NCBI RefSeq assembly: GCF_036507355.1
Contig: NZ_AP027877.1
Length of the DNA: 64,000 nucleotides
Strand: one strand, 5' to 3'
Source: Escherichia coli
Lineage (GTDB): Bacteria > Pseudomonadota > Gammaproteobacteria > Enterobacterales > Enterobacteriaceae
The notes below the pieces were generated by a model. It was not told where the DNA came from and did not search any database. It was given only the letters and a program-made list of their open reading frames with translations. Below are positions 1 to 52,627 of the stretch, in pieces. Numbering within the stretch: the first letter of the stretch is position 1; every line of letters starts with the position of its first letter. Position numbers and translations under genes: made by a program.

Positions 1-1641
1 CGCGAACTGGCGGTACAGGTTGCTGAAGCAATGACGGATTTCTCTAAACACATGCGCGGCGTAAATGTGGTTGCCCTGTACGGCGGCCAGCGTTATGACG
101 TGCAATTACGCGCCCTGCGTCAGGGGCCGCAGATCGTTGTCGGTACTCCGGGCCGTCTGCTGGACCACCTGAAACGTGGCACTCTGGACCTCTCTAAACT
201 GAGCGGTCTGGTTCTGGATGAAGCTGACGAAATGCTGCGCATGGGCTTCATCGAAGACGTTGAAACTATTATGGCGCAGATCCCGGAAGGTCATCAGACC
301 GCTCTGTTCTCTGCAACCATGCCGGAAGCGATTCGTCGCATTACCCGCCGCTTTATGAAAGAGCCGCAGGAAGTGCGCATTCAGTCCAGCGTGACTACCC
401 GTCCTGACATCAGCCAGAGCTACTGGACTGTCTGGGGTATGCGTAAAAACGAAGCACTGGTACGTTTCCTGGAAGCGGAAGATTTTGATGCGGCGATTAT
501 CTTCGTTCGTACCAAAAATGCGACTCTGGAAGTGGCTGAAGCTCTTGAGCGTAACGGCTACAACAGCGCCGCGCTGAACGGTGACATGAACCAGGCGCTG
601 CGTGAGCAGACACTGGAACGCCTGAAAGATGGTCGTCTGGACATCCTGATTGCGACCGACGTTGCAGCCCGTGGCCTGGACGTTGAGCGTATCAGCCTGG
701 TGGTTAACTACGATATCCCGATGGATTCTGAGTCTTACGTTCACCGTATCGGTCGTACCGGTCGTGCGGGTCGTGCTGGCCGCGCGCTGTTGTTCGTTGA
801 GAACCGCGAGCGTCGTCTGCTGCGCAACATTGAACGTACTATGAAGCTGACTATTCCGGAAGTAGAACTGCCGAACGCAGAACTGCTGGGCAAACGCCGT
901 CTGGAAAAATTCGCCGCTAAAGTACAGCAGCAGCTGGAAAGCAGCGATCTGGATCAATACCGCGCACTGCTGAGCAAAATTCAGCCGACTGCAGAAGGTG
1001 AAGAGCTGGATCTCGAAACTCTGGCCGCCGCACTGCTGAAAATGGCACAGGGTGAACGTACTCTGATTGTTCCGCCAGATGCGCCGATGCGTCCGAAACG
1101 TGAATTCCGTGATCGTGATGACCGTGGTCCGCGCGATCGTAACGACCGTGGCCCGCGTGGCGACCGTGAAGATCGTCCGCGTCGTGAACGTCGTGATGTT
1201 GGTGACATGCAGCTGTACCGCATTGAAGTGGGCCGCGATGATGGTGTTGAAGTTCGTCATATCGTTGGCGCGATTGCTAACGAAGGCGACATCAGCAGCC
1301 GTTACATCGGTAACATCAAGCTGTTTGCTTCTCACTCCACCATCGAACTGCCGAAAGGTATGCCGGGTGAAGTGCTGCAACACTTTACGCGCACTCGCAT
1401 CCTCAACAAACCGATGAATATGCAGTTGCTGGGCGATGCACAGCCGCATACTGGCGGTGAGCGTCGTGGCGGTGGTCGTGGTTTCAGTGGCGAGCGTCGT
1501 GAAGGCGGTCGTAACTTTAGCGGTGAACGCCGTGAAGGTGGTCGTGGTGATGGTCGTCGTTTTAGCGGTGAACGTCGTGAAGGCCGCGCTCCGCGTCGTG
1601 ATGACTCTACCGGTCGTCGTCGTTTTGGTGGTGATGCGTAA
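1..1641 (+). CDS. deaD: DEAD-box ATP-dependent RNA helicase DeaD (CsdA), 5' end outside the window
   Basis: ORF 31..1641 is in frame from position 1. Translation matches the C-terminal ~535 aa of DeaD as recalled, including the [11 protein letters not shown] repeat tail. Confidence 0.93.
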
Positions 1642-1794: not shown

Positions 1795-3039
1795 ATGGCA
1801 ACACTAACCACCACCCAAACGTCACCGTCGCTGCTTGGCGGCGTGGTGATTATCGGCGGCACCATTATTGGCGCAGGGATGTTTTCTCTGCCAGTGGTCA
1901 TGTCCGGGGCGTGGTTTTTCTGGTCAATGGCGGCGCTGATCTTTACCTGGTTCTGTATGCTGCATTCCGGCTTGATGATTCTGGAAGCTAACCTGAATTA
2001 CAGAATCGGTTCGAGTTTTGACACCATCACCAAAGATTTGCTGGGCAAAGGCTGGAACGTGGTCAACGGCATTTCCATTGCCTTTGTGCTCTATATCCTG
2101 ACCTATGCCTATATTTCTGCCAGTGGTTCGATTCTGCATCACACCTTCGCAGAGATGTCACTAAACGTCCCGGCACGGGCGGCGGGTTTTGGTTTTGCAT
2201 TGCTGGTAGCGTTTGTGGTGTGGTTGAGCACTAAAGCCGTCAGTCGCATGACAGCGATTGTGCTGGGGGCGAAAGTCATTACCTTCTTCCTCACCTTTGG
2301 TAGCCTGCTGGGACATGTGCAGCCTGCGACATTGTTCAACGTCGCCGAAAGCAATGCGTCTTATGCACCGTATCTGTTGATGACCCTGCCGTTCTGTCTG
2401 GCATCGTTTGGTTATCACGGTAACGTGCCAAGCCTGATGAAGTATTACGGCAAAGATCCGAAAACCATCGTGAAATGCCTGGTGTACGGTACGCTGATGG
2501 CGCTGGCGCTGTATACCATCTGGTTGCTGGCGACGATGGGTAACATCCCGCGTCCGGAGTTTATCGGTATTGCAGAGAAGGGCGGTAATATTGATGTGCT
2601 GGTACAGGCGTTAAGCGGCGTACTGAACAGCCGTAGTCTGGATCTGCTGCTGGTCGTGTTCTCAAACTTTGCGGTAGCGAGTTCGTTCCTCGGCGTAACG
2701 CTGGGTTTGTTTGACTATCTGGCAGATCTGTTTGGTTTCGACGACTCGGCTGTGGGCCGCTTGAAAACGGCATTGCTGACCTTTGCCCCGCCAGTTGTGG
2801 GGGGGCTGTTGTTCCCGAACGGATTCCTGTACGCCATTGGTTATGCTGGTTTAGCGGCTACCATCTGGGCGGCAATTGTTCCGGCGCTGTTAGCCCGTGC
2901 ATCGCGTAAACGCTTTGGCAGCCCGAAATTCCGCGTCTGGGGTGGCAAGCCGATGATTGCGCTGATTCTGGTGTTTGGCGTCGGCAACGCACTGGTGCAT
3001 ATTTTATCGAGCTTTAATTTACTGCCGGTGTATCAGTAA
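1795..3039 (+). CDS. mtr: Tryptophan-specific permease Mtr
   Basis: 414-aa ORF with multiple hydrophobic helices; matches Mtr as recalled; synteny next to deaD. Confidence 0.92.
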
Positions 3040-15991: not shown

Positions 15992-16759
15992 TTAACGACG
16001 ACACATCTCATCAATCACGCATGTGAAATGGTTATGCAGCCATAAAAACGAAGCCGGGATAGCGGTGGAGACTTTAGCCGTGAGAAAACGTTCTGTCGCA
16101 TCCTGCTTTCCTTCGCCAGTCACCAGTAACAAAACTTCGCGGGCAGTGAGAATATCTTTCAAACCTAAGGTGATCCCCCGGGTAACGGGGCGACCTGCGG
16201 TTTTTAACATCTCATGTTGCTGTGTTCTGGCATCAAGTTGGCTGATATGGCAGGCCGGTTGCAGGCTTTCTCCCGGTTCGTTCAGCCCCAGATGACCGTT
16301 TTTCCCCAGCCCAAGCATGCACAAATCGATACCACCTTTGAGCGCAATCAGGTTCGTTACCCGCTCACACTCTGTCTCGTTAATATCTTCAGAGCGAAAG
16401 CTGATGAACTGGTCTTCACGTAGCCCCAGCGGCTGTACGATATGTTGTTGAAGGAAGGTTTCGCAAGTGCCGGGCAGAGTTAATGGCAGATCCACCCATT
16501 CATCGAGTTTGACGACGGTGAGCTGGCTGACATCAACGTGCTGCTGGTGGATTTTTTCTACCAGATAATGATACGTCAGTAATGGCGTGGCTCCGGTCGC
16601 CAGGCAAATCACGGCATCCGGTTTGCTACGGATCACGGCCAATAAATATTCGCTGGCACGTTCACTTAACGCCGTATAGTTTTCAACTTGCTGAAGGGTT
16701 TGCACAGGATGAAATTCCTTAAGTAAAGGGGCACCGCCAGACGCAGTGCCTCGTTCCAT
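15992..16759 (-). CDS. agaI: Putative galactosamine-6-phosphate deaminase/isomerase AgaI
   Basis: 255-aa ORF; NagB-like; last gene of the agaS-kbaY-agaBCDI operon. Confidence 0.85.
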   Translation of the reverse strand: MERGTASGGAPLLKEFHPVQTLQQVENYTALSERASEYLLAVIRSKPDAVICLATGATPLLTYHYLVEKIHQQHVDVSQLTVVKLDEWVDLPLTLPGTCETFLQQHIVQPLGLREDQFISFRSEDINETECERVTNLIALKGGIDLCMLGLGKNGHLGLNEPGESLQPACHISQLDARTQQHEMLKTAGRPVTRGITLGLKDILTAREVLLLVTGEGKQDATERFLTAKVSTAIPASFLWLHNHFTCVIDEMCRR

Positions 16760-25139: not shown

Positions 25140-26420
25140 TTATTGGCCTTCACAGGCTGTGTGGTACTGCGCCAGGATGTCCTGAATATGGTTGATAATG
25201 AGTTCCCGTGGCGTTGGCTGCAGCTCGCCGGAGCGAACTTTCACGTACTGCAGCGGCAGATACTGGCTGATCAGCGGCAGCGGAATTGGTGAATCCGCCA
25301 GATTACGTACCAGATGAGCGAAAGCGTCATCAATCTGGCTGTCCGGCCAGTAATAGCGCACGCGATCCGAGTAGCTATAACCACGCGCCAGACGACGCGC
25401 GTTGCCGTCACCGTGGTAGTGGCTTTGCCAGTATTCCGGGCGGTCGAGCATCACGTTTTCCAGCACCTGACGCAGACCAGAACAGGCTTTTGCTGGCACC
25501 AGTTCTTCTTCAATCGCTGCCAGAGAGAACAGAGCTTCACGCAGGGCGAAGGTCAGCGCCGGGCCAACTTTCAGAATGGCAAAGTGGTCAATCACCAGCT
25601 GGCGCAGCGATTGCGGCGTTTGATAATCGGTAGAGTGCGCTTCGAAAATCAGCGTTTCGTAGTTTTCGACCATCTGGCTTAAGGCGGTCGCTTTGGCGGG
25701 CTGATAATCAATAACGTTGGTGTGATCGAATTCGACGCCGGGTTGAACCACCAGGGCAATGATGCGTGGCTAGATGGCATTCAAACCTTGCTTTTCAAAG
25801 GCGTGACGATGGGCTTCCAGCGTGGCGCGGGCGGCATCCGGCGTGGTGACCGCCAGCTCGCTTAAGGTTTCATGCGCGCCGCCAGGTACCGGCACTTCGG
25901 TACCAATGACATACTCCAAATCGGCTTCGCCAAAGTGTTCGCGACAGGTTTCTTCCGCCACTTTCGCCAGACGGGCGGCGCGTTCAGCCACGATGTCATC
26001 AGTTAAGGGAATCGGATCGTCCTGACAGGACATGCTGCAATCAAGGTGAATTTTTTTGAATCCCGCCGCGACGTAGCTTTTAATCAAATCATCGGCATTG
26101 GTCATTGCCTGAGCGGCCGGCAGGTTTTGCCAGCGGTTTGGCCCCAGATGGTCACCACCCAGAATCAACGCATCCTGCGGGAAATTCAACGAGTCGGCGA
26201 GCTGACAAACAAAGCCGCGAAAATCGGCGGGCGTCATTCCGGTATAACCGCCGAACTGGTCTACCTGATTGGAGGTTGCTTCAATCAGTAACGGCGTTTG
26301 GTTTGCACTGGCGTAGCGGATTGCAGCCTCCAGCACCAGCGGATGTGCGGAACAAACAGCATAAATTCCATTTGTTTTGCCCGCTTTGTGCTGTCTCACC
26401 ATTTCTGTCAGATGTTTCAC
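25140..26420 (-). pseudogene. kbaZ: kbaZ (agaZ) tagatose-bisphosphate aldolase non-catalytic subunit, interrupted by an in-frame amber codon
   Basis: 1281 bp equals 427 codons, the full KbaZ length. One TAG (complement of 25770..25772) sits where K-12 has Trp (...QGLNAI*PRIIALV...); both flanks are in frame and collinear with KbaZ. Confidence 0.8.
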
Positions 26421-35505: not shown

Positions 35506-36693
35506 CTATATTGCGTTTAAAAGGTCGTAATCATACGTATAGTCCTCTCTGGTAAAATATTGATTCTCTGAGTTATATGCTTCATATGTGTTATATTCCC
35601 CGACCTCAAAACCATTGTCCGGAGAATTTTCGTCTTTCTCGAGGGTGTTATCTGAAAGTAACTCTTCTGAGCTAGAGTCTTCTATGTTTAAATCCATAGT
35701 ATAATTAATTTGGGGAATGATCAGATAAGCATTTTCTTTGATATTTTCATAATCTTCAATGATTATGTCGATATAATCATGTGTTTTTTCTGATGAGAAA
35801 TCTATCATCTCTGGTAATTTAATTCTGTTCAAGCAATTGTTGATTTTCGATGAGCTTTTATATATTTCTTTTGTTAATTCATTTTCTAATTTATCTGTAA
35901 GAGTTGCTCTTGGTATAGATTTTATAATTGCAAATCTCATAATTTTTAATTGTTCTTCGGTAATGTCTCCAAGCTCATTCAAACAACTTTCGACAAACTT
36001 GATTTTTTCTTCAGAATACATATCGCTAATGCTTATTAAAACAGGCGTTATTTTTAGTAAATAATCCCAGGAGATTGTGGTGTTTTGTTTTGAACTAACG
36101 AAATTTACCTGAAACATGTTGGCATTAGTAAAATCTGTGTCATCCAATTTAAAAGGATTTAAAATTGCATTGGCCATATGTTTATCTGTAAAATCATAAA
36201 GTTCTAAATCGACATTACGTAAGTCCAGAGAGGATAGATCAACGATATCTCCAGTCCCACAACTAAAAATTACGTTTAACCTACTGATTTCATTGTAAAT
36301 ATCTTTTAATGGGCAATTAATATTGATATTGCCTGTGGATATTTCCTAGTTTTTTAACGGTTCATTAATGGTAAGTTCACAAGTATTGTCCGATCGTTGA
36401 ATAATTTGGGCGTTATAACCTAAAAAATCCAGACGAAGAGACGAGTCATTATAAAGAATTACATTTTGTAAGTACGCTAATTCTTTTTGAAAATCACCAG
36501 TGATAATGCATTTTCCACCAGGTTGTAACGTGTTAAGTAAAGTGACCATTTCAATAGAGGTCTGTTTTAGTTTTTCTATACCTGGTGCTAGTGCTTCGAG
36601 GTTATTTCCTGTTGGGCTTTCAGGAAGGTCATTCATTTTTCGACGGACTAAATCACTACTAATATCATTACCAATTGATGAAACAGGGAACAT
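35506..36693 (-). pseudogene. yhaC: yhaC, interrupted by a single in-frame amber codon
   Basis: 1188 bp equals 396 codons, the full YhaC length. One TAG (complement of 36346..36348) in ...EPLKN*EISTGN...; translation is otherwise continuous across the 115-aa and 223-aa ORFs, with no frameshift. Confidence 0.75.
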
Positions 36694-36714: not shown

Positions 36715-37254
36715 TCAATAAAAATCATTATTAAAATGATCGGGTGAAAAAAAGAGAATTTGCCAACAATCTGAAGTAATGCTGGTTTTATTAAAGTACG
36801 CAGGGGGTGTTAAGATGGCTTCTTTTCGGGTGAATTTTGCACAATACTTAGAAATCGTCTCCTTAATACATTCCAGCTCTTTTTTATTGACGGCTGAGCA
36901 AGTACATTTTTCGCCAAAAGGTGCAAAAGTGCCTACATCTAATGTTTGTATGATATAATCGTCATGTTCTCCTGTAGAAATATCTATGATGAATGGACTC
37001 ATATTTTCCGGTTGGATTCGGATCATGACAGAAGGAACATCGCCTTGATAGAAATTCAATGCAGTAATTGCAGATAATACTCTCCGCAGTTCATTACTTA
37101 TACTGTAAATTTTATTAACGTCATTGGTGGAGACAATTTCTGCAAACTTTCTTTTTACCGTCCAATAATCAATATTTCTATTGTGATTATTAACCACTGC
37201 GTGCATTGGTGGGATTGAAGGGTGAAAAATATGTGCAATTGGGAAGCCTTTCAT
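36715..37254 (-). CDS. yhaB: Uncharacterized protein YhaB
   Basis: ORF 36715..37284; start placed at MKGFPIAHIF (179 aa); AT-rich gene; synteny. Confidence 0.7.
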   Translation of the reverse strand: MKGFPIAHIFHPSIPPMHAVVNNHNRNIDYWTVKRKFAEIVSTNDVNKIYSISNELRRVLSAITALNFYQGDVPSVMIRIQPENMSPFIIDISTGEHDDYIIQTLDVGTFAPFGEKCTCSAVNKKELECIKETISKYCAKFTRKEAILTPPAYFNKTSITSDCWQILFFSPDHFNNDFY

Positions 37255-51830: not shown

Positions 51831-51874
51831 AATTCTAAGATTAATTTGAACCAAACTTCGGTAATGACTCCAAC

Positions 51875-52378
51875 TTATTGATAGTGTTTTATGTTCAGAT
51901 AATGCCCGATGACTTTGTCATGCAGCTCCACCGATTTTGAGAACGACAGCGACTTCCGTCCCAGCCGTGCCAGGTGCTGCCTCAGATTCAGGTTATGCCG
52001 CTCAATTCGCTGCGTATATCGCTTGCTGATTACGTGCAGCTTTCCCTTCAGGCGGGATTCATACAGCGGCCAGCCATCCGTCATCCATATCACCACGTCA
52101 AAGGGTGACAGCAGGCTCATAAGACGCCCCAGCGTCGCCATCGTGCGTTCACCGAATACGTGCGCAACAACCGTCTTCCGGAGCCTGTCATACGCGTAAA
52201 ACAGCCAGCGCTGGCGCGATTTAGCCCCGACATAGCCCCACTGTTCGTCCATTTCCGCGCAGACGATGACGTCACTGCCCGGCTGTATGCGCGAGGTTAC
52301 CGACTGCGGCCTGAGTTTTTTAAGTGACGTAAAATCGTGTTGAGGCCAACGCCCATAATGCGGGCTGTTGCCCGGCAT
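51875..52378 (-). CDS. insB: IS1 transposase InsB (normally made as an InsAB' frameshift fusion)
   Basis: 167-aa ORF recognised as InsB; overlaps insA in the -1 frame. Confidence 0.95.
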
Positions 52379-52572
52379 CCAACGCCATTCATGGCCATAT
52401 CAATGATTTTCTGGTGCGTACCGGGTTGAGAAGCGGTGTAAGTGAACTGCAGTTGCCATGTTTTACGGCAGTGAGAGCAGAGATAGCGCTGATGTCCGGC
52501 GGTGCTTTTGCCGTTACGCACCACCCCGTCAGTAGCTGAACAGGAGGGACAGCTGATAGAAACAGAAGCCAC
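52297..52572 (-). CDS. insA: IS1 protein InsA
   Basis: 91-aa [46 protein letters not shown]..., recognised as InsA. Confidence 0.95.
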
Positions 52573-52627
52573 TGGAGCACCTCAAAAACACCATCATACA
52601 CTAAATCAGTAAGTTGGCAGCATCACC

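Follow-up and report, generated by a model that had tools for sequence, protein, structure and literature searches.

The yhaC gene in the window (the whole 64-kb stretch of E. coli DNA analysed here) is a real, recent, single-hit null allele, and the kind of event that produced it is a familiar one: a premature amber codon, TAG, stands at codon 116 in place of the glutamine codon CAG. A C to T transition converted Gln116 to the stop and left yhaC without function. Taken as a whole, we judge it probable that this null allele arose by deamination at a Dcm methylation site and is tolerated as yhaC is dispensable. For biology at large it has little weight, as it simply adds to the null alleles of a gene that is dispensable and uncharacterised; under this reading it would also be a clean case, taken from nature, of the textbook amber hotspot at 5-methylcytosine, hit repeatedly among wild E. 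coli lineages.

The gene occupies 35506..36693 on the minus strand, with 395 codons and a terminal TAG, and aligns without gaps to intact alleles. Translation of the minus strand from 36693 to 35506 gave 396 codons with one internal stop (INEPLKN*EISTGNININ), and the comparison with E. coli DSM 103246, in which 1188 nt aligned with no gaps, left the CAG to TAG change at codon 116 as the sole disruption. The original prediction of a collinear yhaC broken by only one in-frame TAG, with no second stop and no frameshift, is therefore borne out, and the window allele has no indel either. By translation and alignment, the premature codon lies at 36346..36348 (minus strand). The substituted base is window position 36348 (gene nt 346), where the coding strand has gone from C to T and the plus strand from G to A, and this is the first codon position on the minus strand; the original prediction had placed the critical base at 36347 and needs correcting on this point. 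The ancestral codon, not assigned at the outset, is CAG (Gln), as found in the intact alleles of STEC17-190, M12 and DSM 103246 (1188 nt, ungapped) and in the alleles fetched without this stop. The open reading frame list splits the gene, in the way described earlier, into two pieces separated by 168 bp: an N-terminal residual ORF of 115 aa plus the amber stop (36346..36693, minus strand), which is the expected truncated product, and an orphaned C-terminal ORF of 223 aa starting from Met173 (35506..36177, minus strand). Both fragments are deposited exactly, the first as BED20813.1 (hypothetical protein VEE46_05810) and the second as BED20812.1 (locus tag VEE46_05800). The upstream neighbour yhaB (36715..37254, minus strand) is intact, with 0 amino acid differences from DSM 103246.

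The identity of the gene is clear from both its family and its locus. With Gln116 restored, the protein scores 886 bits (cutoff 765) against the NCBIfam equivalog NF007262, 'YhaC family protein', over positions 1-395 of 395, and a full-length yhaC match is present in 4,295 of the 5,426 complete E. coli genomes, which disposes of the idea that the homologues might naturally end at this position. yhaC lies downstream of yhaB and between tdcR and the convergent rnpB, the same gene order as in annotated RefSeq genomes. Membership in NF007262 supposes an uninterrupted coding sequence, and the window yhaC has a TAG at codon 116; judging from the reading frame, it is to be regarded as a pseudogene of the YhaC family and not as a functional member. 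The earlier description of a clean nonsense allele rather than a decayed pseudogene holds in the sense that there is a single lesion; functionally, however, it is still a pseudogene, as reflected in the RefSeq label 'internal stop' on the identical mutation.

Translation would stop after 115 residues, with ~70% of the protein removed. The next in-frame ATG, that of Met173, is 57 codons beyond the amber codon, and the bases immediately preceding it show no ribosome-binding motif of the GGAG/AGGA type. Since there is no obvious motif of this kind, the C-terminal ORF is likely untranslated, and its 223 residues are probably not made. Polarity on downstream genes is excluded, since yhaC is the last gene before the convergent rnpB. 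The part that would be lost includes a weak pentapeptide-repeat-like stretch (36094..36246, minus strand; aa 150-200) downstream of the stop. The sole recognisable feature found by Pfam in YhaC is Pentapeptide_4, with a non-significant i-E of 0.15, and a sequence search of the PDB gave 2j8k Np275/Np276 (E 0.1, non-significant), all hits being pentapeptide-repeat proteins with E >= 0.1. PADLOC returned nothing for YhaC or YhaB. A literature match for 'yhaC' (PMC6597613) was false, the string being the yield symbol YHAc/s, and was set aside.

In intact alleles, including that of DSM 103246, gene nt 345-349 read CCAGG, a CCWGG site, and the mutated nt 346 is its inner C. The inner C of CCWGG is the cytosine methylated by Dcm. 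In the window the site is destroyed and reads CTAGG (36345..36349, minus strand). We propose that the transition would have originated by spontaneous deamination of the 5-methylcytosine at this inner C, that the resulting T:G mismatch would have escaped very-short-patch (Vsr) repair, and that the allele may have persisted in a dispensable, AT-rich gene that E. coli lineages have lost repeatedly. Given the sequence context, the recurrence described below and textbook knowledge, deamination is the most likely origin. Amber hotspots at 5-methylcytosine were reportedly defined in lacI by Coulondre, Miller and colleagues in 1978 and by Lieb in 1991, and those of the 1978 work are said to be CAG to TAG changes within CCAGG. 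The yhaC case shares with lacI the ancestral CCAGG, the inner C, the C to T change, the CAG to TAG outcome and the repeated hits. It differs in that the lacI hotspots belong to a laboratory mutation spectrum, whereas yhaC shows standing natural variation among wild lineages; moreover, nonsense sites outside Dcm motifs recur within yhaC too, and methylation of yhaC is deduced from the motif, the dcm and vsr genes being located outside the window. T:G mismatches in CTWGG/CCWGG come from deamination of Dcm-methylated C(5me)CWGG and as a rule are corrected by Vsr repair, and C-to-T mutations are frequent at such sites without Vsr (PMC2715241).

A second Dcm site with amber potential, CCTGG over Trp209 (36067..36071, minus strand; nt 623-627), is intact in the window; two more CCWGG sites of yhaC begin at nt 109 and 172. 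It is the only other Dcm-linked amber-able position in yhaC, and one event was found there, in the single genome of strain ZH177, which carries TGG to TAG at Trp209, a change that deamination on the opposite strand would give. The 64-kb window has 162 CCWGG sites but only two occurrences of the words CTAGG/CCTAG, one of which is the new yhaC site. This scarcity fits the known depletion of CTAG-containing words, which is attributed to very-short-patch repair. As a marker site, nt 346 of yhaC could be of use for studying how Dcm and Vsr balance each other in nature.

In order to see how often this stop occurs elsewhere, we searched the 5,426 complete E. coli genomes with a 41-mer in which the T is placed such that no 28-nt megablast seed can match without it. 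TAG116 was present in 34 of them, or 34 of ~4,295 full-length alleles. In the matches that were fetched, yhaC was marked as a RefSeq pseudogene with 'internal stop' in 16/16 cases; a yhaC with this very mutation is already treated as a pseudogene in the annotation of other strains, and the kind of event is known. These RefSeq/PGAP 'internal stop' alleles (ATCC 8739, MS 69-1, NRZ14408, CRE444 and F8704-2) have the same TAG at codon 116 and the same yhaB-rnpB locus as the window. They stand, however, on other haplotypes, and several have added frameshifts or IS1, in contrast to the single lesion of the window allele.

The gene in which these stops recur is dispensable and highly variable. Roughly 590 of the 5,426 complete genomes keep only a yhaB-yhaC deletion remnant, and a further 540 are without a match. 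The remnant, found in EcPF18 (2398..2564 of the fetched locus) and in ~590 others, retains the 5′ end of yhaB and two parts of yhaC, namely 63 internal nt (nt 270-332) and the 3′ end; the tdcR gene adjoining it carries an internal stop in EcPF18. The yhaB-yhaC island has a GC content of 0.29-0.36 vs ~0.55 in the flanks, yhaC itself being at ~30% GC. In K-12, yhaC is predicted to be foreign and contains a 706-bp 'promoter island' that is H-NS-bound in all cited studies (PMC3661553). Alleles of yhaC differ by up to ~7-9% (classes go down to ~92.5% identity), compared with ~1% in the flanking genes (~99-100% identical). The gene is hypervariable and mosaic, and the complete-genome allele closest to that of the window reaches 98.1%. 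The yhaC alleles of H9Ecoli and E. coli C are only 4 nt apart, yet they carry different nonsense codons (69 and 76). In RM8385 and UTAK-1, both with Gln203 changed to TAA in yhaC, yhaB is frameshifted too (yhaB at 354..895 and 360..898, respectively), and the RM8385 yhaC has a second stop at codon 248; the combination of a yhaB frameshift with a yhaC stop suggests that the yhaBC pair decays together in some STEC lineages.

Because yhaC is dispensable, the window allele is presumably tolerated. It resembles the recurrent inactivation of dispensable, H-NS-silenced genes of horizontal origin in E. coli/Shigella, where pseudogenes form under relaxed or antagonistic selection, in being AT-rich, H-NS-bound in K-12 and represented by many null alleles. 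It differs from such cases in that the window genome is not broadly decaying, with 45 of 48 genes intact. The repeated loss of yhaC is relevant to anyone assigning it a function.

As a control for the frequency of TAG116, all remaining transition-type nonsense changes of yhaC (CAA, CAG or CGA turned into a stop, and TGG into TAG or TGA) were placed on four haplotype backgrounds and searched as a query of concatenated 41-mers. The query yielded 40 further genomes with stops at eight other codons (44, 69, 76, 99, 195, 203, 209 and 248), and the stops were confirmed in the nine control alleles that were fetched. Gln203 to TAA was the most frequent (18 genomes, three backgrounds), followed by Gln76 to TAA in 15 genomes, including E. 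coli C, WG5 and NCTC122 and also the unrelated GF8 class, and by Gln248 to TAA in 4 genomes; stops at Gln44, Gln69, Gln99 and Gln195 were seen in 1 genome each. Codon 116 is the most hit of the 16 transition-nonsense targets, with 34 genomes on at least 4-5 backgrounds, compared with at most ~18 genomes and ~3 backgrounds for any other site. With 17 inferred events and 16 sites, the chance that a given site receives at least 5 of them is a binomial p of 0.003, which becomes 0.05 after correction for any site, both values being based on haplotype counts; the event counts themselves rest on haplotype reasoning from 26 fetched alleles. The hotspot reading is well supported by context, and by frequency the data are suggestive rather than conclusive.

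Stops at two codons outside Dcm sites, Gln76 and Gln203 (each CAA to TAA), likewise recur, on 2-3 backgrounds, and part of the recurrence could come from selection for losing yhaC, or from how many lineages were sampled, instead of hypermutability. In its full form this explanation holds that nonsense alleles of yhaC, TAG116 among them, recur under selection for the loss of YhaC at an ordinary mutation rate, the Dcm context being coincidental. It would accommodate the nonsense events of transition type, at least 17 of them independent and spread over 9 codons, along with the frameshifts, IS insertions and large deletion class, as well as the recurrence at codons 76 and 203, and a study of 92 E. 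coli genomes from wastewater lists yhaC with the top genes under positive selection (PMC9110714). However, selection for loss does not predict that the top site should be the inner C of one of the two Dcm-linked amber-able sites, and the repeated neutral loss of an H-NS-silenced gene fits the data equally, the two ideas not being mutually exclusive. We therefore regard selection with a coincidental Dcm context as rather unlikely, and favour deamination at the Dcm site.

The haplotypes on which TAG116 is found indicate how many times it may have arisen. Group A comprises the window, GCA_905398585.1 and SRR17480487; group B, NRZ14408, OW967178, TUM14771, MS 69-1, GN02461, 4621, 755 and OX030728; group C, CRE444, 2020S05-013, 492 and TK3896; group D, ATCC 8739, EC1722-1 and 1506; and group E, F8704-2 and a metagenome contig. 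These groups differ mutually by 21-55 of the first 850 nt, and the TAG116 alleles of other strains have 22-39 differences from the window within the same 850 nt. The distinguishing SNPs nearest to the TAG are at nt 324, 334, 357, 363 and 373. Since shared descent would need conversion tracts shorter than ~50-115 nt, the parsimonious reading of these haplotypes is that the TAG116 origins are independent, at least four and probably five in number. TAG116 is homoplasic and unsuitable as a clonal marker.

It could be argued instead that the TAG arose once and spread by homologous recombination, the window allele having been imported. The haplotypes are visibly mosaic, and groups B and C are locally identical from nt 288 to 379. 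However, groups A, B/C, D and E are told apart by positions only 11-22 nt away from the TAG, which would limit every transfer to a tract of tens of bases, and very-short-patch repair of the heteroduplex turns T to C at CTAGG, which erases the allele and does not spread it (PMC2715241). A single origin followed by spread is in our view quite improbable. Under the preferred reading of separate deamination events, some groups also preserve a history after the stop. In group B, the TAG-only NRZ14408 differs from the others mainly by the +1 A frameshift of the TUM14771/MS 69-1 group, as one would expect had the stop preceded the decay. In group D, a further frameshift in ATCC 8739/EC1722-1 and an IS1 in strain 1506 both lie downstream of the TAG. 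The nearest CAG alleles to group B are 99.5% identical. For the Gln203 stop of the control, an intact allele that is otherwise identical was seen, CNREC_004-43 being the same as the intact M12 except for that one nt.

A further possibility is that CCAGG/CTAGG at codons 115-117 works as a natural two-way mutational switch of yhaC. Dcm-dependent deamination would take CAG to TAG, and Vsr repair of T:G mismatches generated at replication would take TAG back to CAG, and an H-NS-silenced, fast-evolving yhaC would in this way be toggled off and on across lineages, possibly even within populations. Under such a switch, contigs that end inside the pentamer could trace heterogeneity within a sample. 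Many public short-read contigs do stop within the CCAGG pentamer, with ends at nt 345, 348 or 350 (window-equivalent 36344..36349), and 64 blocks of the searched collection index a 116-aa 'partial' product. These ends could reflect graph forks due to heterogeneity within a sample, or a clone-specific insertion. However, we give them little weight because contig breaks are also common at many other positions of the AT-rich yhaC, and we consider the switch highly improbable. A deletion remnant of the EcPF18 type was rejected as the cause of the pentamer contig ends, as its yhaC fragment ends at ~nt 333. In an ENA metagenome contig with a coverage of 1.5x, the adjoining codon GAA117 reads TAA (CCAGTAA), which may be an error.

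Could the amber codon be read through, or suppressed by a suppressor tRNA or in a context-dependent manner, with full-length YhaC still being made? The 279 codons downstream of the TAG are still open in the window, and the exact wild-type protein would be regained if a suppressor inserted Gln. However, a recent mutation would likewise leave the downstream frame open, the codon that was there before is an ordinary CAG, and the stop, with its low frequency among full-length alleles, is not conserved among homologues. The downstream frame is also not maintained in other TAG lineages, where it decays through frameshifts or IS1 beyond the TAG (TUM14771/MS 69-1, ATCC 8739/EC1722-1 and 1506). A suppressor was sought as well, and no tRNA gene lies within the 64-kb window. 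We attach very little probability to read-through, and take the window yhaC to be a null allele.

The allele is also present in other members of its lineage. Over 6,348 nt the NCBI draft assembly GCA_905398585.1 shows a single mismatch to the window, and over 4,333 nt the Logan assembly SRR17480487 shows 2, both having the same 115-aa ORF ending in TAG; these two TAG-bearing public assemblies are 99.95-99.98% identical to the window. On this evidence, the yhaC TAG allele is heritable and fixed in the small lineage of the window. A sequencing or assembly error at the base, which had been raised with the original prediction and might be suspected in a single-base difference adjoining an A6 homopolymer, is practically negligible as an explanation, as the change is a substitution and not a homopolymer-length error, the same TAG occurs in two independent datasets from this lineage, an NCBI draft assembly and an SRA run, and the split ORFs are deposited exactly. 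Two Logan contigs 'encoding' the 115-aa product were discarded as evidence for the TAG, since they end one base before the variant. The closest complete RefSeq E. coli genomes are 98.1% identical over yhaC and 99.0-99.2% over the flanks (12-17 kb), so that this collection has no member of the lineage. The Gln-restored 395-aa version of the window haplotype was not found among ~15 billion proteins.

In regards to the rest of the window, 48 genes were compared with DSM 103246, and 45 of them are intact; the window genome is not broadly decaying. The disrupted genes are yhaC, kbaZ and yhaI. The kbaZ gene has an amber codon at W217 (25770..25772, minus strand; TGG to TAG) in an otherwise intact 426-codon frame. 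The likeness to kbaZ that had been drawn earlier is right in that each gene has a single amber codon. The two stops are nevertheless of different kinds, the one in yhaC being at a Dcm site and recurrent. A Dcm origin was rejected for the kbaZ amber, since its context, ATCTGGCC, is not CCWGG, and for the same reason no common Dcm explanation can cover both stops. The kbaZ amber also appears to be private to the lineage, because its 41-mer has no match in the 5,426 complete E. coli genomes (0/5,426). In yhaI, an IS1-like element of ~766 bp (51862..52627) replaces 215 bp of the gene, of which 121 nt still align.

Finally, the window lacks the yraHIJK fimbrial operon present in DSM 103246 and passes directly from agaI to the lpoA side, with the boundary at ~16035. 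The agaI gene (15992..16759) aligned over 725 of 756 nt, and its 3′ part is unusually divergent (93.8% over 725 nt). The arrangement without yraHIJK is found in some other E. coli too, at 99% identity.
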